Origin: Oligoflexales bacterium
GTDB lineage: Bacteria > Bdellovibrionota_B > Oligoflexia > Oligoflexales > JAPPIL01
Length of the DNA stretch: 64,000 nt
NCBI GenBank assembly: GCA_965226195.1
Contig: OZ245333.1
Coordinates: forward strand, 2,087,127-2,151,126
Direction: 5' to 3'
Under the pieces are notes generated by a model. The model did not search any database. It was given only the letters and a program-made list of their open reading frames with translations, and had not been told where the DNA came from. Below, piece after piece: positions 10,895-59,466 of the stretch (position 1 is its first letter; each line of letters begins with the position of its first letter). Both the position numbers and the translations under genes were made by a program.

Positions 10895-11031
10895 CGGCTC
10901 GTTGCCGCTTTCTAGCTTCGCACGGTTCTTTGCCGCTTTCCTGCTTCGCACGGCTCGTTGCCGCTTTCCTGCTTCGCACGGTTCTTTGCCGCTTTCCTGC
11001 TTCGCACGGCTCTTTGCCGCTTTCTAGCTCC
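10895..11031. repeat. Tandem array, about 5 x 28 bp, of the CTTTGCCGCTTTC(C/T)(T/A)GCT(T/C)C repeat family
   Basis: Direct reading shows the unit ctttgccgctttcctgcttcgcacgg(c/t)t repeated head-to-tail. The array fills the gap between the GCS2 stop and the GDH start. Confidence 0.9.
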
Positions 11032-13232: not shown

Positions 13233-13306
13233 GCGGGCATAGCTCAGCTGGCTAGAGCGTCGCGTTGCCATCGCGAAGGTCGAGGGTTCAAATCCCTTTG
13301 CCCGCT
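13233..13306 (+). tRNA. tRNA-Gly (anticodon GCC)
   Basis: A hand-folded cloverleaf gives acceptor GCGGGCA/TGCCCGC, anticodon stem TCGCG/CGCGA, loop TTGCCAT, T-arm GAGGG-TTCAAAT-CCCTT and discriminator U. No CCA is encoded. Confidence 0.9.
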
Positions 13307-13307
13307 T

Positions 13308-13522
13308 TTTGTTTTTATGCGGGGAGCGTTCCCCTGGCTTTGTTGCATAAGTTCCGTTGATTATAACATGCTGTTACCATAGCACTTTTATGTGGGGAGC
13401 GTTCCCCTCCCCGCTTTGCGCGGCTCTTTGCCAAAGGCGTGCCCGAAGGCACGCCTAGCTCCACACCCCTGCGTGTTCGCAGACTTCTCGTTTGGGTCAG
13501 GTGCAATCATCCTGCTGCACCA
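13308..13522. repeat. Copy A of a ~215-bp near-identical duplicated non-coding element (partner at 24288-24499)
   Basis: Only a handful of mismatches and small indels separate it from 24288-24499. It contains GGGGAGCGTTCCCC motifs and the hairpin GGCGTGCC-CGAA-GGCACGCC (13436-13455), embedded in a split copy of the short-repeat core. Confidence 0.85.
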
Positions 13523-14153
13523 TTCACACATGTGTGAATGCTCTTTGTCGCTTCCTAGCTCCAGCTAACGCATTCGCGTGAAATGGTTCGCTGTGATGCT
13601 TCCTCCCGCCCCTGTGTAAACTTTTGCGGACAATGCAAACTTGTGTGTAACACGAGCAACTTCTCCATAACATCAATATGATCATTATGAGATTGTCAAT
13701 GCTCGGCACTATGCCTATACCCCAAAGAAAAACCCCGTATTAAAACTCGCGGCTTTAGAGGCAAGTTCAGATGATGGGCAGCACAAATATGCCAACACCT
13801 ATATCCATCTTTGCGGGCGAGGGTTGTTGTGACCCAAGCAGTGTGCCAGAAGGCACGCTGCTAATCCTTATTGCCAAAGGGCACAAGCAAGTGGAAGCTA
13901 GCAAGCAGCAAAAGGATTGCGTAGCACGCCCGGGAGGCCAAATGTTAGGCGCGCAAGGCAGACCTTGGCTAGCACTACGCCTGAGTGTACGAAGCGAGCT
14001 AGAGCGAGAAAGCGGCAAAGAGTTCGCGAAGCGAGCGTTACAAAAAAGCGGCGTAAGCTAGCATTCATCCATTCAGCTGCGTCCAGCAGCTGAAAAAAAA
14101 CAAAACAAGCTAATGATTAGTTTTTTTCTCGCAGGTTACGTATACTGGCGGGC

Positions 14154-16987: not shown

Positions 16988-17467
16988 CTATTCGCAAGCC
17001 TTTTCAGCCGTCACCCACGTGGTGACCTTTTCCTTGGTCAAGCCACCGAGCTGGTCTTTACCGGGATGCTCCTTGTCAGCGAGATCGCCAGTGAGATACG
17101 TCCACAGCTTGTCCGCATCGAGTAAATTTTTCTCCTTGACTTTAGCTAGCATGCCTTCTTTGTTGCTAGCGGCGTTGGTCTCACCTGCCTTCAGCGCAAA
17201 CCCACCCTCGTCAGTCGCACTCGAATGACAGCCAGAGGCATCACAACTGTCTGTCTTGATATGCGGCTGGATGTTGCTGGCAAACGCTGTCGATGCCGCA
17301 GGGCAACCGTCCGTTGTTTCTGTTGGTTCATTCTCGCCATTGCACTGCCACAACATCAATGCCGCGACAATCGCTACGCTAACCCTTTGCCGCTTTTTAG
17401 CTCCGCTAACTCTTTGCTGCTTTCTAGCTTCGCTAACTCTTTGCCGCTTTCTAGCTCCACGCATCAT
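16988..17467 (-). CDS. Putative lipoprotein with a CX4CH (heme-c-like) motif; paralog of 17756-18196
   Basis: Lipobox-like LMLWQC and the motif SCDASGCH, with a shared architecture with the neighbouring gene. The only available N-terminus consists of three 27-nt repeat units (ARKRQRVSE/ARKQQRVSG/AKKRQRVSV). Confidence 0.55.
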   Translation of the reverse strand: MMRGARKRQRVSEARKQQRVSGAKKRQRVSVAIVAALMLWQCNGENEPTETTDGCPAASTAFASNIQPHIKTDSCDASGCHSSATDEGGFALKAGETNAASNKEGMLAKVKEKNLLDADKLWTYLTGDLADKEHPGKDQLGGLTKEKVTTWVTAEKACE

Positions 17468-17496
17468 CTCTCCCTCCTTTAATTGGTAAAAAATAT

Positions 17497-17754
17497 CTCT
17501 TCCTAGCTTCGCTAGACTCTTTGCCGCTTCCTAGCTCCGCTAGACTCTTTGCCGCTTTTTAGCTCCGCTAGACTCTTTGCCGCTTTTTAGCTCCGCTAGA
17601 CTCTTTGCCGCTTTTTAGCTCCGCTAGACTCTTTGCCGCTTTTTAGCTCCGCTAGACTCTTTGCCGCTTTTTAGCTCCGCTAGACTCTTTGCCGCTTTTT
17701 AGCTCCGCTAGACTCTTTGCCGCTTTTTAGCTCCGCTAGACTCTTTGCCGCTTT
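17497..17754. repeat. Pure tandem array, about 9 x 28 bp (unit AGCTCCGCTAGACTCTTTGCCGCTTTTT)
   Basis: Direct reading shows nearly identical units without spacers. They fill essentially the whole intergenic gap between the two CX4CH lipoprotein paralogs. Confidence 0.95.
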
Positions 17755-22379: not shown

Positions 22380-22482
22380 TTTTTCCGCGGCTTTTGCTAT
22401 CGTCGCATGTGTGCTATGCTGGAGCTAGAAAGCGGCAAAAAGTCTCCACGAGGCTTGAGTCTGATTGAAACAGAGGAGTGTT

Positions 22483-22962
22483 ATGGATACGGCTGGTTTT
22501 GCTAAAGTAAAGGGCTATCTCAACGAACTGGGATTGGCGATTATCAAGGAGGTTGCCGACGATGACCTGTTTATCGTGCAGGACGAGGACAACGGCATCA
22601 ACAATTTAGTTATCGATGTCGAAGACCCGATTGTTGTTCTCGAACAGTTTATCATGGACGTGCCTAAGCAGGGGCAGGAGTATTTTTATCGTCGCCTGCT
22701 GCAGATGAACCGCGCACTCGTGCACGGTGCATTTGTGCTCGATGGGGAGCTAGAAAGCGGCAAAAAGTTAGCGGCACAGCCGCTAGAAAGCGGCAAAAAT
22801 CTGCGACATGAGCGTAGCGAAGTGGTGGCACAACGTGTTTATTTTCGGGATACCTTGCAGCTGCAAAATCTTGATCTCAACGAACTTGAAGCTTCGATCA
22901 AGGCGTTGTCGCTAGGTTTGGCTGAAGTCAGTAGCGAGCTGATTGAATTTTCCAAAAACTAA
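22483..22962 (+). CDS. YjfI-like (DUF2170-like) protein paired with PspA, carrying two in-frame repeat units
   Basis: The ATG at 22483 is preceded by AGAGGAG, and the gene lies immediately upstream of a PspA-family gene, as in yjfI-yjfJ. The internal LESGKKLAAQP-LESGKNLRHE segment is encoded by repeat units at 22746-22800. The family call is tentative. Confidence 0.5.
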   Translation: MDTAGFAKVKGYLNELGLAIIKEVADDDLFIVQDEDNGINNLVIDVEDPIVVLEQFIMDVPKQGQEYFYRRLLQMNRALVHGAFVLDGELESGKKLAAQPLESGKNLRHERSEVVAQRVYFRDTLQLQNLDLNELEASIKALSLGLAEVSSELIEFSKN

Positions 22963-26556: not shown

Positions 26557-26853
26557 ATGTTGTCAGTAGCTGGGGCACGACGCGGATAGTTCGGCCTGAA
26601 TCTGTTGCTGACAACATATGACGCACATAGTTGCACGGTGAATTCTTTGCCGCTTTCTCGCTCTAACCTTTAAGCATAGCAGCACTGCTGGGTCAAAGCA
26701 AAAAATACGTCTGTACCTCTTGCGTAGCATGCGAAAATCGTTTCTAATTATACACAGAGCTAATTTTTACAATCGGGCTAGTTTGCTGCTGCGTTGACTG
26801 TCTGCTCGTAGCTTGGGGCTAGCTTATATTCGCGGGGAAGGGATATTTTTACC

Positions 26854-43148: not shown

Positions 43149-43877
43149 CTAGACACACCGCCGCAATAACTCTTCACACTGTTCAGTAGGCGGCTCAATC
43201 AACTCTGCCGCAAGCAAGCGCACAACCGCACGTGGCAATTCTTTGCGCAATGTGGCGCTTATTTTGTCTTGCTCGCTGTCTGGCACGATGTCAGCAAGAC
43301 CGCACAAGAACTGTGCATGCGTGCGTCCGGCGCGATAGTCAGGTTCACGCTGTGGGTGTGGCAGCAATGCCTCGATCTTGTCCACCTCTGCACGGTAGAG
43401 CAGCGAAGCCTGATAGAGGAGATAGTTGCGACTGCGAAAGATCGACGTGCCGCCTACCTTGCGTTCTCCCCAAGCAATATCGCTGATACCACGATGGCGC
43501 AAATCGGCCCACGCAGCACAATAGACAGCAAAACTTTCAATCAATGCGGTGTTGATACGCTCAAAGTAGTGCGCATTGTGAAAGTAACGCCCTACCCACA
43601 GCCCTATACTGACGATGATGCAGTACTGGTGCAAGACCACCGCTCCGCCGCCGCCCTTGCGCCGCAAGACAGAAACACCTTGTGCCGCACAGCGTTCCTG
43701 ATAGCACGCAGCCTCAGGGCTATCGCTGTTACCCAACACTACTATGTCGCGCTCAGGTGACCAGACTTGTGTGCAGATTTTTTGCCGACATTGGGCAATG
43801 ACACGGCGATCGATACCACTTGCTATGCTTGTAGGGCTGTTTGTCCGCTTTCTAGCTCCGACCAACGCCCGTATCAC
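43149..43877 (-). CDS. Lipoate-protein ligase/octanoyltransferase (BPL_LplA_LipB) family protein
   Basis: Motifs RRKGGGGAVVLH and GERKVGGTS are typical of the family. The N-terminal residues VGARKRTN are encoded by a repeat-family unit. Confidence 0.5.
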   Translation of the reverse strand: MIRALVGARKRTNSPTSIASGIDRRVIAQCRQKICTQVWSPERDIVVLGNSDSPEAACYQERCAAQGVSVLRRKGGGGAVVLHQYCIIVSIGLWVGRYFHNAHYFERINTALIESFAVYCAAWADLRHRGISDIAWGERKVGGTSIFRSRNYLLYQASLLYRAEVDKIEALLPHPQREPDYRAGRTHAQFLCGLADIVPDSEQDKISATLRKELPRAVVRLLAAELIEPPTEQCEELLRRCV

Positions 43878-44686: not shown

Positions 44687-44729
44687 GCTTCGCTCCGCTC
44701 GCTGGCTTGTTTGCCGCTTTCTTGCTTCA

Positions 44730-49509: not shown

Positions 49510-49933
49510 CTGCAGCGGTGATCGCTTCCCGCGCCCCTTTGCTGAACTTATGCGCTGAGACGATCAAACTGCGATCAAGCTTACCACCCGCCAGAATTTT
49601 TAGTTTTTTGTTTTTGCTCAACGATACCAGCTTCTTCTCCTTCAGCTGTGCCGTGCCGATTTCTGTGCCCGCCTCGAAACAGTTGAGCCTCTCTACAGGC
49701 AACACCTCATAGTTAGTTCTGAAGATGTTACGAAAACCACGCTTCGGCAAACGTCGATAGAGCGGAGTCTGCCCGCCCTCAAAACCACAGGCAATCTTCC
49801 CGCCACGCCGTGCCGTCTGACCCTTGTGTCCCTTGCCTGCTGTCTTGCCTGTGCCTGAGCCGATACCACGTCCCAAACGTTTGCGGGCATGCTTCGCTCC
49901 TGCATTAGGGCGCAATTCCTGCAAGGTAATCAC
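49484..49933 (-). CDS. rplO: 50S ribosomal protein L15 (uL15)
   Basis: LQELRPNAGAKHARKRLGRGIGSGTGKTAGKGHKGQ matches uL15. Confidence 0.95.
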   Translation of the reverse strand: MITLQELRPNAGAKHARKRLGRGIGSGTGKTAGKGHKGQTARRGGKIACGFEGGQTPLYRRLPKRGFRNIFRTNYEVLPVERLNCFEAGTEIGTAQLKEKKLVSLSKNKKLKILAGGKLDRSLIVSAHKFSKGAREAITAAGGQCRELS

Positions 49934-50139
49934 GATACACCCCGTGCATCTTCTTTGTCCGTCAACAACTCGTATTCAAGCAAGTGATTTGCCTTGTTGA
50001 TCATGCCACGTATGCAGTTAGTGTCTTTTTTTACCACACTGTGCCTGATACGCCGCAAACCGAGTGCCCGCACGACACGCCTCATTTTCTGCGGCTGCCC
50101 AATCAGACTGCGTTTCTGCCGAATCAAAATCTTGCTCAT
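49930..50139 (-). CDS. rpmD: 50S ribosomal protein L30 (uL30)
   Basis: MSKILIRQKRSLIGQPQKMRRVVRALGLRRI matches uL30. The start is set at the ATG at 50139, just after the rpsE stop. Confidence 0.9.
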   Translation of the reverse strand: MSKILIRQKRSLIGQPQKMRRVVRALGLRRIRHSVVKKDTNCIRGMINKANHLLEYELLTDKEDARGVS

Positions 50140-50140
50140 C

Positions 50141-50680
50141 TCACGTTCCTCCACCAATACCTAGCGTAAAATGCTCAACCGACTTGTCCCGAAACGCGGC
50201 ATACTCGGCGATCGAAATCATCTGTGTCAAGCCATCCATCGTTGCCCTGATGACATTGTGAAAATTCTTTGTGCCATGCACCTTGCAAACGATGTCGGAA
50301 ATTCCTGCCAGTTCAACGATAACCCGCACCGCACCACCAGCGATAATGCCCTTACCTTTACGCCCCGGATACATCAGTACCCGTGACGAGCCATGACAGC
50401 CAATCGCGGAGAATGGAATCGTGCCGTCAACAATAGCAATCTCGGTTAAGCTCTTGCGTGCCCGCTCAGCCCCTTTGCGAATTGCCTCTGGCACTTCGGT
50501 TGCTTTGCCCAAGCCATAGCCGACTTTGCTCACCCCGTCGCCGACCACTACCGAAGCACTGAAACTAAAACGACGACCGCCTTTCACTACTTTCGCTACC
50601 CGTGCGACGTGAATTACCCGATCTTGCAGCCCTTCGGTGACAGGCTCGCCGCCAACTCCAAACGGATTCTTATTGGTCAA
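50141..50680 (-). CDS. rpsE: 30S ribosomal protein S5 (uS5)
   Basis: RVAKVVKGGRRFSFSASVVVGD...GLGKATEVPEAIRKG matches uS5. Confidence 0.95.
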   Translation of the reverse strand: MTNKNPFGVGGEPVTEGLQDRVIHVARVAKVVKGGRRFSFSASVVVGDGVSKVGYGLGKATEVPEAIRKGAERARKSLTEIAIVDGTIPFSAIGCHGSSRVLMYPGRKGKGIIAGGAVRVIVELAGISDIVCKVHGTKNFHNVIRATMDGLTQMISIAEYAAFRDKSVEHFTLGIGGGT

Positions 50681-51066
50681 AACTTCACTCCCCCTTCACG
50701 CACGCCCTCTGCTAGAGCTTTTAGGCGACCGTGATAATTGCAGCCATTGCGATCGAAAACTACCGTCTTCACTTCTTTTGCCAAACACGCAGCAGCTAGT
50801 TTCTGCCCCAGCACTTTGCAGTTTGCGACGTTCGCCCGTGAGGCTGCGCCACGCTTTTTGCCGCTTTCGCGCTCCAAATCATCTTTGCCGAACGAACTCA
50901 CCGCCACCAACGTATGCTGCTTCACATCGTCGATCACCTGTGCATAGATGTGCCGTGCTGAACGAAACACCGACAGACGTGGGCGCTCCGTCGTGCCGCT
51001 GATTTTCTTGCGAATACGCTTCTTACGCCGCAACAGCAGCATTAGCTTAAGTGTCTGCTTCTTCAT
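50677..51066 (-). CDS. rplR: 50S ribosomal protein L18 (uL18) with an apparent internal repeat-unit insertion
   Basis: RPRLSVFRSARHIYAQVID...FDRNGCNYHGRLKALAEGVREGG matches uL18. The internal LERESGKKRG is encoded by the repeat core at 50854-50875. Confidence 0.93.
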   Translation of the reverse strand: MKKQTLKLMLLLRRKKRIRKKISGTTERPRLSVFRSARHIYAQVIDDVKQHTLVAVSSFGKDDLERESGKKRGAASRANVANCKVLGQKLAAACLAKEVKTVVFDRNGCNYHGRLKALAEGVREGGVKF

Positions 51067-51620: not shown

Positions 51621-51631
51621 CTCTGCTCCTT

Positions 51632-51713
51632 ACTCCGCTCGTCGCAGGACTCTTTGCCACTTGCTAGCTCCTCACTCCGCTCGTCGCAGGACTCTTTGCC
51701 ACTTGCTAGCTCC
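51632..51713. repeat. Two tandem 42-bp units of the repeat family in the rpsH-rplF spacer
   Basis: actccgctcgtcgcaggactctttgccacttgctagctcctc is repeated at 51632 and 51674. Confidence 0.9.
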
Positions 51714-51714
51714 A

Positions 51715-52110
51715 TCAATACACCGAACACAACAGCTCTCCACCCGTGCCACGTCGCCGTGCTTCACGATCGGTCATGACACCCTGAGAAGTTGAAAGCA
51801 CGACGATACCAAAACCGTTCTTGATCAAGGGAATGTCCTCGCTCCCCACATAACGCCGACAACCGGGACTACTAATGCGTTTAATCTCTCTAATTACACC
51901 GTTCAACGGGTCACGATACTTTAGCGTGATCTTCAACAAACCCTGCTTGCCATCACGAATACAGCGGTAGTTTTTGACAAAACCTTCTTGCCTGAGAATA
52001 TGTGCAATGGCAATCTTTATCCGCGACGCGGGCATACTTACCACCTCGTTACACGCCCGCTGCCCGTTACGAATACGAGTGAGAAAATCAGCAATAGGAT
52101 CAGTATTCAC
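51715..52110 (-). CDS. rpsH: 30S ribosomal protein S8 (uS8)
   Basis: DPIADFLTRIRNGQRA... matches uS8. Confidence 0.95.
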   Translation of the reverse strand: MNTDPIADFLTRIRNGQRACNEVVSMPASRIKIAIAHILRQEGFVKNYRCIRDGKQGLLKITLKYRDPLNGVIREIKRISSPGCRRYVGSEDIPLIKNGFGIVVLSTSQGVMTDREARRRGTGGELLCSVY

Positions 52111-53250: not shown

Positions 53251-53576
53251 CTTGTCGCCACCCTTATGATTTCCAGCAGATTAAAGCTTTTGCGCTTGCT
53301 GCGTGGCCGACAGGGACGCACCAGCACCTCATCACCAAGCTGCGACTTGTTATCCTCATCGTGAAAGAGAATCTTCGTCGTGCGCTTAATATATTTGCGA
53401 TAGATAGGATGCTTGACCAAACGCTCAATCTTCAACGTGCGGGTCTTCGACAACGCCGCACTGATCACTACGCCTTTCAGCGTCTTGATGCGCGCTTTGC
53501 CTGCTTCGCTCGGCTTTTTGCCGCTTTCTGCTTCGCAGGACTCTTTGCCGCTTGCTCGCTCCGCTTCACTCGTCAC
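53247..53576 (-). CDS. rpsQ: 30S ribosomal protein S17 (uS17) with a repeat-derived N-terminal extension of about 25 aa
   Basis: The core [44 protein letters not shown] matches uS17. The N-terminal [26 protein letters not shown] is encoded by repeat units. The only in-frame start I can find is the GTG at 53576, which overlaps the rpmC end. Confidence 0.9.
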
Positions 53577-58585: not shown

Positions 58586-58882
58586 GTGGGACAGAGTAAA
58601 AAAACAGAACAGCTGACGATCGCAGCGACGCGGCGGGAGAAGACAGGCAAGGGTTATGCTCGCAAGCTGCGACGGGCGGAGCAATTACCGGGAGTGATTC
58701 TCGATCGCGGCAAAAGCACGGCGATTGAACTTGACCCAAAATTGCTGGGCAAGGTGTGGAAGAGTGGTAAGCGTTTTGTGCTGGAGTTGGATGGCGAAGC
58801 GCACAAGGCGCGGTTGCATGACGTGCAGATCGATGCGGTGAAACGCACACCGTTGCACGTTGACATCATGTATGAGCGGTGA
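58586..58882 (+). CDS. rplY: 50S ribosomal protein L25 (bL25, short form)
   Basis: 98-aa ORF: ...RREKTGKGYARKLRRAEQLPGVI...RTPLHVD, located upstream of pth. Confidence 0.8.
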   Translation: MGQSKKTEQLTIAATRREKTGKGYARKLRRAEQLPGVILDRGKSTAIELDPKLLGKVWKSGKRFVLELDGEAHKARLHDVQIDAVKRTPLHVDIMYER

Positions 58883-59466
58883 AGCTGCTCGTCGGGCTGG
58901 GTAATCCCACGCCGCACTACGCCTTTACCCGCCACAATGCAGGTTTTATCTGTCTCGACTTGCTGGCGACAGAGTATAGCCTGACGTGGACGGAGAAAAA
59001 AAAACTGCGGGCTTTGGTGGCGCAAGGTGAGGTATTTGGCACAAAGTGTCTTTTGCTGAAACCGCAGACATGGATGAACCATAGCGGTCAAGCGGTGGCC
59101 GCGGCGGTGAATTTTTTCCGCCTCATGCACGACGACGTGGTGGTCTTGTATGATGACCTCGACGTGCCCGCAGGACGAGTGAAGTGCAAGGACGCTGGCA
59201 GTAGCGGTGGACACAACGGCGTGCAGAGTGTCATTGATTGTCTGCACAGCCAAAATTTCCAGCGCATCAAGCTGGGGGTGGCACGTCCGCCAGAAGCGCA
59301 GCATTCGGGGGATGGGAGCGAGAAAGCGGCAAAAAGCAGACCCACGAGCGGAGAGGAGTGGGTGCTGGGAAAATTCAGTGCAGCTGAGCTGGAAGTTTTG
59401 CGCACAGAGATGTATGAACAGGTGCTGCTGCGGTTGCGGCAGATTTTCAGAGAAACGCAGGCTTAA
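58879..59466 (+). CDS. pth: Peptidyl-tRNA hydrolase with an apparent internal repeat-unit insertion
   Basis: KLLVGLGNPTPHYAFTRHNAGF and ...GGHNGVQS match Pth. The segment PPEAQHSGDGSEKAAKSRPTSGEE interrupts the usually short G.G.P....VL loop and contains the repeat core at 59315-59336. Confidence 0.9.
   Translation: MKLLVGLGNPTPHYAFTRHNAGFICLDLLATEYSLTWTEKKKLRALVAQGEVFGTKCLLLKPQTWMNHSGQAVAAAVNFFRLMHDDVVVLYDDLDVPAGRVKCKDAGSSGGHNGVQSVIDCLHSQNFQRIKLGVARPPEAQHSGDGSEKAAKSRPTSGEEWVLGKFSAAELEVLRTEMYEQVLLRLRQIFRETQA

Follow-up and report, generated by a model that had tools for sequence, protein, structure and literature searches.

A short dispersed repeat in an Oligoflexales bacterium and its probable entry into the gene for ribosomal protein uL18

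The uL18 gene and its inserted segment

The sequence that we analyzed is a stretch of 64 kb, here called the window, which contains a ribosomal protein operon with the gene order S8-L6-L18-S5-L30-L15-SecY. The first-pass annotation of this DNA had proposed that a 22-nt repeat core is embedded in frame in the gene for ribosomal protein uL18, and this is confirmed by an exact match within an ORF whose product is recognized as uL18 by Pfam (PF00861, E=1e-39, profile positions 8-116 of 116). When the 129-aa ORF product was compared with solved uL18 chains in the PDB by phmmer, the best E was 3e-29. The features of the locus are as follows.

50677..51066, minus strand: uL18 (rplR) gene, 129 aa, host of the insertion (ORF, Pfam PF00861, solved uL18 chains)
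50854..50875, minus strand: 22-nt repeat core GGAGCGCGAAAGCGGCAAAAAG (exact match, in frame within uL18)
50841..50873, minus strand: 33-nt in-frame insertion AGCGCGAAAGCGGCAAAAAGCGTGGCGCAGCCT, comprising core and spacer (nucleotide alignment against the insert-free relatives L083, L001 and L087)

The core in uL18 translates as (L)ERESGKK. It had been taken for the inserted segment, and although its position stands, its extent does not: the insertion defined by alignment is 33 nt rather than the 22-nt core alone, with a boundary that is ambiguous by approximately 2 nt. These 33 nt supply 11 codons, encode the peptide ERESGKKRGAA, and split an ancestral GCA (Ala) codon at ...CTG G|CA CGG.... No target-site duplication is present at this junction, where CTGG|CACGG became TTGG-[33 nt]-CACGG; there is only a microhomology of about 2 nt.

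The added length depends on the reference. An earlier estimate of about 7 residues roughly holds against E. coli, in which 111 residues align with 119 of the window protein, whereas the difference from the closest insert-free relatives is exactly 11. Aligned as proteins, the 118-aa forms, which are 82-92% identical, read ...SSFGKDG[LVM]-ARANV..., and the window lineage has 11 further residues at this point. Alignments with the solved uL18 chains all carry a gap of 5-9 residues, at the window segment LERESGKKRGAAS. The insertion reading had also implied that relatives without the repeat family would lack these residues, and this is so for L001 – an uncultured Oligoflexales MAG (OY282434.1) related to the window – and for L087, both of which have no repeat copy in their sampled loci and a 118-aa uL18 without the insert. 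L083, in which the sampled loci hold only two repeat copies, likewise has the 118-aa form.

A database search among close relatives returned uL18 lengths of 118, 129, 132, 134 and 138 aa, corresponding to 0, 11, 14, 16 or 20 extra residues at the same loop; four relatives have other inserts there, of 14-20 residues. The form seen in the window is present in four assemblies (window/L089, L084, L090 and P0122), which represent the window lineage or its allele, and it was recovered in independent assemblies from at least three samples. The inserted amino acids are identical in all four carrier genomes, and the single nucleotide difference among them is synonymous.

That difference bears on a further observation of the first-pass annotation, which had noted CGCG in place of the CTAG of the canonical core. 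We see the same substitution, and in the 97% identical L084 the corresponding letters are CGAG, so that the uL18 core has two mismatches to the canonical core in the window and one in L084. Because L084 carries CGAG, a common variant in the family, the likely path is CTAG > CGAG > CGCG, with a synonymous (Arg) last step. Loss of CTAG would not have been needed to keep the uL18 frame, since GAG CTA GAA would be open.

The resemblance to the family extends beyond the core. The 13 nt that follow the 22-nt core in uL18 are similar to the spacers of other units: the tail CGTGGCGCAGCC resembles CATGGCGGAGCAG of the uS17 units in relative L081 and CCGTGCGAAGCAG of the array at 10.9 kb in the window. 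Over its whole length, the insert matches a 39-nt unit of the L081 uS17 array at approximately 30 of 34 positions in an alignment made by eye. Given this match and the spacer-like 13 nt, the uL18 insert is one complete unit of the family, in agreement with the one-unit insertion originally suggested.

We modeled the protein with AlphaFold2 from a 20-sequence alignment (mean pLDDT 75.9). Residues 65-75, which are the 11 inserted residues, are the sole segment of uL18 with a pLDDT below 50, and they lie between strand 51-57 (strand 3) and helix 80-96, consistent with the loop placement proposed at the outset. A Foldseek search matched the core of the model to many uL18 chains from ribosome structures, with TM scores of 0.65-0.72. 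On this model the 11 hydrophilic residues are predicted to form a disordered loop, and the remainder of the essential uL18 is intact.

Sequence, abundance and orientation of the repeat family

The 22-mer is the core of a lineage-specific, dispersed family of short repeats. At up to 3 mismatches, the window contains 8 matches to the uL18 22-mer (0.01 expected) and 23 to the canonical core GGAGCTAGAAAGCGGCAAAAAG (0.00 expected from shuffles). With a relaxed search the count rises to 31 copies at approximately 13 loci. Each unit is 27-45 nt long and consists of the 22-nt core (consensus GGAGC[T/G]AG[A/C]AAGCGGCAAA[G/A]AG) and, after it, a spacer that varies (5-23 nt). Units are purine-rich and non-palindromic. 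Tandem Repeats Finder reports a 28-nt period at 10895-11029 and at 17504-17754; at 51625-51713 it finds two units of 42 nt, and at 53501-53565 units of approximately 27 nt. The loci outside uL18 are listed here.

10895..11031, minus strand: tandem array of about 5 units, 28-nt period, in the GCS2-like/NAD-GDH spacer (sense orientation)
13541..13562, minus strand: solo diverged copy beside a 20-nt perfect palindrome (orientation relative to transcription ambiguous)
14001..14050, plus strand: composite copy, core plus GAAGCGAGCGTTACAAAAAAGCGGCG, resembling the longer uL18 insert ("type A") found in sister lineages (sequence match)
17383..17458, minus strand: three in-frame units, 27-nt period, directly after the ATG of ORF 16988-17467 (ORF translation)
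17504..17754, minus strand: non-coding tandem array of 9 units, 28-nt period, directly upstream of ORF 16988-17467 (Tandem Repeats Finder)
22421..22442, plus strand: canonical core standing alone in the spacer before the CesT-like gene (sense orientation)
22746..22800, plus strand: two in-frame cores (ELESGKKLAAQPLESGKN) in a CesT_Tir_1-family protein encoded at 22483-22962 (Pfam, ORF translation)
26633..26663, minus strand: single copy lying 77 nt ahead of a ceramidase-like gene (sense orientation)
43841..43858, minus strand: in-frame core (GARKR) near the N-terminus of ORF 43149-43877 (core search)
44688..44729, minus strand: single unit that constitutes the RpoA-uL17 spacer (core search)
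51625..51713, minus strand: two 42-nt units filling the uS8-uL6 spacer (Tandem Repeats Finder)
53501..53565, minus strand: two to three in-frame units forming an N-terminal extension of uS17 (translation)
59315..59336, plus strand: in-frame core in peptidyl-tRNA hydrolase (Pth), read as GSEKAAKS (open frame 58876-59466)

Several of these copies illustrate how the repeat sits within genes. In Pth, CGAG replaces CTAG and so removes what would be an in-frame TAG; alignments to solved structures end just before the core, 179 residues span 162 profile positions, and the copy is also present in L084. The cores of the CesT-like protein read ELESGKK, and its Pfam domain is divided into two stretches. 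ORF 16988-17467 begins MMR-GARKRQRVS x3 followed by a hydrophobic segment, and at this one locus the period is 28 nt in the non-coding array and 27 nt immediately after the ATG. The uS17 GTG start is common to relatives that do not have the units. Upstream of uL6, the AAGGAG that precedes the ATG is itself the 3' end of the last unit in the uS8-uL6 spacer.

The relatives add further ribosomal proteins to the set of hosts. In L084, uS8 carries an in-frame repeat with a net insertion of 45 nt that is not in the window uS8, and uL30 reaches 150 aa with approximately 13 in-frame units of 18 or 27 nt. The uS17 of L081 has five in-frame units of 39 nt and a length of 153 aa, compared with 114 aa in the close relative L090, and the family is in frame in uL15 of both L081 and L090. 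Near-identical genomes thus differ in unit number, both in uS17 and in uL30 (75 aa versus 150 aa), and at a given spacer the copy number ranges from 0 to about 8 between relatives with no obvious consequence. We also note that a spurious 109-aa ORF has been called as a "gene" between uS8 and uL6 in L081.

The core is translated in all three frames, yielding unrelated peptides. Wherever CTAG would produce an in-frame TAG, the copy has CGAG or CAAG, without exception, and CTAG is common in the other frames and in spacers. The use of three frames and the loss of CTAG in the stop frame indicate a DNA-level repeat under frame selection, not a conserved peptide. Orientation is also constrained: at 12 of the 13 window loci, which use either DNA strand, the copies are sense with respect to the gene that hosts or follows them, with the thirteenth ambiguous, and every copy in L084, L081 and L090 is sense-oriented.

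Folding of five unit variants in search of a hairpin gave z values of -0.24 to +0.03 relative to shuffled controls, so that a hairpin reading of the REP, RPE or MITE kind was rejected, and an Rfam scan of 10-60 kb of the window, at gathering thresholds, returned only two tRNAs, leaving the repeat unmatched. Terminal inverted repeats are absent, the unit ends (GGAGC... and ...GAGCGGAG) being direct rather than inverted. No target-site duplication was seen at the L084 uS8 insertion. Beside the arrays there is no transposase or reverse transcriptase; Pfam assigned the eight flanking ORFs to housekeeping families only.

The density of the family was surveyed in the 64 kb of the window and in about 10-20 kb of each relative. 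It is 4.8 hits per 10 kb in the window, 9.2 in L084, 5.4 in both L081 and L090, 1-3 in L082, L083, L085 and L086, and 0 in L001 and L087. Density follows insert status, the two genomes with no copies being insert-free in uL18. Distant loci totaling 878 kb gave 0.03 hits per 10 kb (three weak hits). An exact scan of JGI metagenomes with the degenerate core produced a single match, L091, which lies in a K/E-rich ORF and is probably coincidental.

History of the uL18 loop and competing explanations

We used a nucleotide tree of 6 kb of the operon, which replaced a three-gene protein tree that was too weakly resolved. The window and L084 group together with 100% support, and L081, L086 and L083 form (L081,(L086,L083)), the two nodes having 91% and 81%. 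L085 and L087 fall outside this group, and where the window lineage stands with respect to these two has a bootstrap of only 38%. The longer inserts of L081, L086, L085 and L082, which we call type A, measure 42-60 nt, occupy the same uL18 loop, and have in common the motif ...AAGCGAGCGATACAAAAAGCCTGGCG.... Their motif AAGCGAGCGWTACAAAAAGC matches window positions 14001-14050 with 2 mismatches, against 0.02 such matches expected. In the operon tree, type A inserts are interleaved with the insert-free state of L083. Because this second, older type of insert exists in sister lineages, the history of uL18 is not one simple event.

By eye, type A differs from the window insert (type B) in the frame of the core, in the insertion point, by 2-3 nt, and in the left flank; type B interrupts the Ala codon, which type A follows. 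In our view, these three differences suggest that the uL18 loop is an insertion hotspot and that the two types are separate events. Other parts of the operon retain an older record. Decayed homologous inserts are present in uS8 of L085 and L087, where L084 has a near-canonical insert, and remnants of the repeat remain in the uS8-uL6 spacer of L083 and L085. From the decayed inserts and the spacer remnants it follows that the repeat family is older than the clade.

The type B insert has also appeared on a second background. L090 and the contig that contains the window derive from one sample. Over L6-L18-S5 it is 97.7% identical to L081 and 84.7% identical to the window, and it is L081-like at essentially every informative site, with the exception of one contiguous window-like patch of approximately 60 nt that holds the type B insert and its immediate flanks. 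The confinement of the patch indicates short-patch allelic replacement between co-occurring lineages as its apparent source; the alternative is that it is a chimera introduced by polishing.

The reading that we favor, and hold to be quite probable, is that a unit of this lineage-specific repeat entered uL18 and added a disordered loop, against a background of local growth, dispersal by means other than a transposase, and filtering by selection. One 33-nt unit would have inserted inside the Ala codon of an ancestral ...FGKDGL-A-RANV... loop. Locally, the family would grow by slippage or unequal recombination of head-to-tail units, and new sites and allele exchange would arise by short-patch recombination or templated insertion; a transposase is disfavored because inverted ends, a target duplication and a mobility gene close by are all lacking. 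Within ORFs, selection would let survive only those copies that are free of stops, a multiple of three in length, and situated in loops or at termini. The uL18 segment is then most likely a tolerated passenger and not an adaptive module, neutrality being our assumption. Such a coding filter does not explain why intergenic copies are also sense-only, which hints at an RNA-level constraint or a feature of the mechanism. Possible causes of the polarity are selection against antisense pairing with abundant sense copies in mRNA, an RNA-level function, or insertion linked to transcription.

L083 is nested among lineages with type A, and so the window insert could instead be a remodeled descendant of the older one: a remnant of one ancient type A insertion that the ancestor of the clade already had, shortened or overwritten in this lineage by gene conversion from other repeat copies and lost in those with 118 aa. 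We regard this as possible but unlikely. It draws on the occupation of one loop, with the common AAGCGAGCGATACAAAAAGCCTGGCG, in the outer lineage L085 as well as in L081, L086 and L082, and on the right half of type A, which agrees by eye with the window insert in about 18 of 21 positions. The uS8 inserts, decayed in L085 and L087 and near-canonical in L084, offer an analogue, and L090 demonstrates replacement of one type by the other on the same backbone. Yet the core frames differ (ERESGKK versus SEKAS) and there is a 1-nt difference in spacing to the downstream anchor (by eye), so that simple descent of type B from type A needs compensating frameshifts. The insertion points are not the same, the left flank in the window lineage is still the ancestral D-G/D-L and shows nothing of the left half of type A, and the 118-aa forms share with more distant relatives a G-[LVM]-A-R junction that deletion would not easily re-create. 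As a sole explanation, simple common descent of the window and L081-type inserts was rejected on account of their frames and insertion points.

The repeat may alternatively be primarily a functional RNA or DNA signal – such as a purine-rich, Shine-Dalgarno-like (GGAG/AAGGAG) element acting in translation or mRNA stability, or a protein-binding site – whose copies in ORFs are by-products or regulatory. The sense orientation of 12 of the 13 window loci, and of all copies in L084, L081 and L090, speaks for this, as do the many copies that fill intra-operon spacers, the provision of the uL6 AAGGAG by the 3' end of a unit, and the retention of remnants in the uS8-uL6 spacer across lineages. We nevertheless find it doubtful: the units show no conserved secondary structure (z about 0) and match no Rfam family, spacer copy number goes from 0 to about 8 without obvious effect, close relatives have insert-free alleles of uL18, uS8 and uL30, and selection against antisense copies could also yield the polarity.

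Similarly improbable, in our judgment, is that the unit is a miniature mobile element that has neither palindrome, terminal inverted repeats nor target duplication, and whose insertion is tied to the polarity of transcription through RNA-templated or transcription-coupled template switching. RNA templating here could mean a reverse transcriptase or repair templated by a transcript. Were this true, the element would enter transcribed regions preferentially and create new disordered segments in core ribosomal proteins, hotspots such as the loops of uS8 and of uL18 (between strand 3 and the helix) would be hit repeatedly, and alleles would spread between co-occurring species.

We think it very unlikely that selection on the protein favored the inserted peptide as an adaptive extension, for example as a charged loop contacting rRNA, a factor or the host, with its similarity to the repeat secondary. 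The invariance of the amino acids in four genomes, with the one nucleotide difference synonymous, would fit such selection, as would the spread of the allele to a second lineage and the persistence of several different inserts at the loop. Against it, the core also occurs in non-coding DNA and is read in three frames as unrelated peptides, close relatives do well with 0, 11, 14, 16 or 20 residues added, disorder is predicted for the segment, and four near-identical sequences give no power to detect selection. Lastly, a match due to chance, or to misassembly of low-complexity sequence – suggested by the E/K/G/S-rich peptide and by the exact core in a K/E-rich ORF of an unrelated metagenome contig – is effectively refuted by the 0.00-0.01 matches expected in 64 kb, the coverage of all 33 nt by the match, the independent assemblies from at least three samples, and the three weak hits in 878 kb of distant loci.

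Ribosomal proteins are encoded by some of the most conserved genes, and as a rule a family of them varies little in length. In this narrow clade, uL18, uS17, uS8, uL30, uL15, Pth and others have been lengthened by a repeat of about 30 nt, and copy numbers shift between genomes that are only about 2% apart. The system lends itself to the study of how selection filters frame, stop codons and position, and its sense-only polarity and recurrently used loops lead to testable hypotheses of RNA-level constraint and of hotspot targeting. There are practical consequences as well, in that the inserts distort the ribosomal protein alignments used for phylogenomics and for checks of MAG quality, and give rise to spurious ORF calls in spacers. 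We believe that the main interest lies in the repeated lengthening of core ribosomal proteins and in the unexplained transcription-sense polarity.

Comparison with known repeat systems

The core sequence is absent from the searchable literature, and we found no matching description of repeats in Oligoflexales or of in-frame repeats in ribosomal proteins. We place the window repeat among the short repeats that invade coding regions.

Uptake sequences, the DUS of Neisseria and the USS of Pasteurellaceae, are short conserved motifs of high density that are also translated inside genes. They accumulate by point substitution, add no length, are not in tandem, and are not tied to the sense strand, whereas the copies described here add 33-45 nt to genes and are sense-only.

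Intragenic tandem repeats, such as minisatellite-like VNTRs and the PARCELs (PMC2996958), share with the window repeat the head-to-tail units that differ in number between close strains, and in-ORF units that are a multiple of three and encode hydrophilic, probably disordered segments. Variation of the slippage type is what we see in the 10.9- and 17.5-kb arrays, uL30 and uS17. The uL18 copy, however, is a solo unit at a new locus and not a local expansion, and copies of its nucleotide unit lie at no fewer than 13 loci per 64 kb, both coding and non-coding. PARCELs are 75-nt palindromic units in ORFs of unknown function and not in core ribosomal proteins (PMC2996958), and the window repeat is not one of them.

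MITEs and repeats of the REP/BIME type (ERIC, Correia, BOX, REPIN) are sometimes fused in frame to ORFs, and like the window repeat they are short, non-autonomous, present in high copy, and concentrated in spacers within and between operons (PMC10969869). The repeat described here is neither a MITE nor a REP, having no terminal inverted repeats, no hairpin, and no target-site duplication at the uL18 and uS8 junctions. It is much shorter than either group and can expand in tandem; in addition, its units are non-palindromic, many are intragenic, and all are in direct orientation, unlike those of REP/BIME elements. No cognate transposase or RAYT was seen within the 64-kb window.

The closest analogue is the Rickettsia palindromic elements (RPEs), which are palindromic sequences of approximately 100-150 bp that lie in frame in many unrelated genes (PMC10969869). 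Both are dispersed between genes and in frame within unrelated, often essential ones, the added peptide seems compatible with the fold, and the bacteria have small genomes and are likely host-associated (PMC10969869 for the RPE side). In-frame copies of the present repeat occupy uL18, Pth, the CesT-like protein and uS17 in the window, and uS8, uL30 and uL15 in relatives. Length and palindromy set it apart from RPEs, since its units are 27-45 nt and do not fold beyond shuffled controls, and it further differs in its head-to-tail arrays, its fast changes in copy number, its sense polarity, its use of three frames, and its host, which is Oligoflexales-like and not Rickettsia. The repeat offers a second system, mechanistically distinct from RPEs, in which to study how selfish or slippage-prone DNA supplies new protein segments in essential genes.

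In-frame repeat units in uL30 and uS8

In L084, a locus from a close relative of the window lineage, uL30 (L084:10928-11380) is 150 aa long because it carries approximately 13 in-frame repeat units with 18- and 27-nt periods, whereas uL30 is 63-70 aa in relatives without repeat units and, in the genome of the window itself (window 49930-50157), is called at 68 aa within an ORF of 75 aa. Despite this gap in length, the operon DNA of L084 and that of the window are only 1.7% apart.

A net in-frame insertion of 45 nt, with the canonical CTAG core intact, is present in the uS8 gene of L084 (9110-9165) and absent from that of the window (51715-52110). The identical site is occupied in the relatives' loci L085 and L087 by decayed homologous inserts of 36 nt, and this shared occupancy marks the site as a second hotspot loop.

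Other ribosomal proteins also differ in length. The C-terminus of uS5 (window 50141-50152) has three extra codons in the window and L084, ending in GIGGGT rather than the GIG of relatives; these codons are not repeat-derived. L081 (a sister lineage), L086 and L090 have a longer uS10 (131-133 aa, versus 103-105 aa) and a longer uL3 (248-252 aa, versus 225-234 aa). Only the uL4 proteins of L081 and L090 reach 230 aa, versus 213-218 aa, with that of L086 at 213 aa.

uL18 variants and a core match outside the clade

We compared L090:10150-10260 (ERZ26694896 ctg117924) with L081 and with window 50820-50900. The backbone of L090 is of the L081 type (97.7% identity), and its window-type uL18 insert sits on a window-like patch of approximately 60 nt. 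The patch reflects either short-patch recombination between lineages approximately 15% apart or a polishing chimera; L090 derives from the same metagenome sample that yielded the window's own contig.

A uL18 variant of 123 aa (P0013), encoded on a 196-kb contig, is 96% identical to the window protein, insert included, and is frameshifted after residue ~102, probably through an assembly or sequencing error in a different assembly of the window lineage.

In the JGI metagenomes, the only exact match to the core was at L091:2821-2842 (Ga0172362_10014833), on a 6.5-kb contig. The coding sequence around it is K/E-rich (...IEELESGKKRKKKI...), and the match may be coincidental.

Arrays between and ahead of genes

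Part of the window combines the following features:

13233-13306, + strand, tRNA
13521-13540, perfect 20-nt palindrome, CATTCACACATGTGTGAATG
13541-13562, diverged repeat copy immediately upstream of the palindrome, the sole copy of ambiguous orientation relative to transcription
13771-14061, 96-aa ORF holding two repeat copies, with the C-terminal end ...LERESGKEFAKRALQKSGVS

The 96-aa ORF had no Pfam match, and may be either a real gene or an open frame generated by the repeats. A 109-aa "gene" called between uS8 and uL6 in L081 (9139-9468) consists almost entirely of 27-nt repeat units plus spacer, and is probably a spurious ORF within an expanded intergenic array.

The array at window 17383-17754 has a 28-nt period where it is non-coding. 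Immediately past the RBS and start codon (ATG) of the ORF at 16988-17467, on the minus strand, the period shortens to 27 nt; with this change, from GAGTCTAGC to GAGTTAGC, an in-frame TAG is lost.
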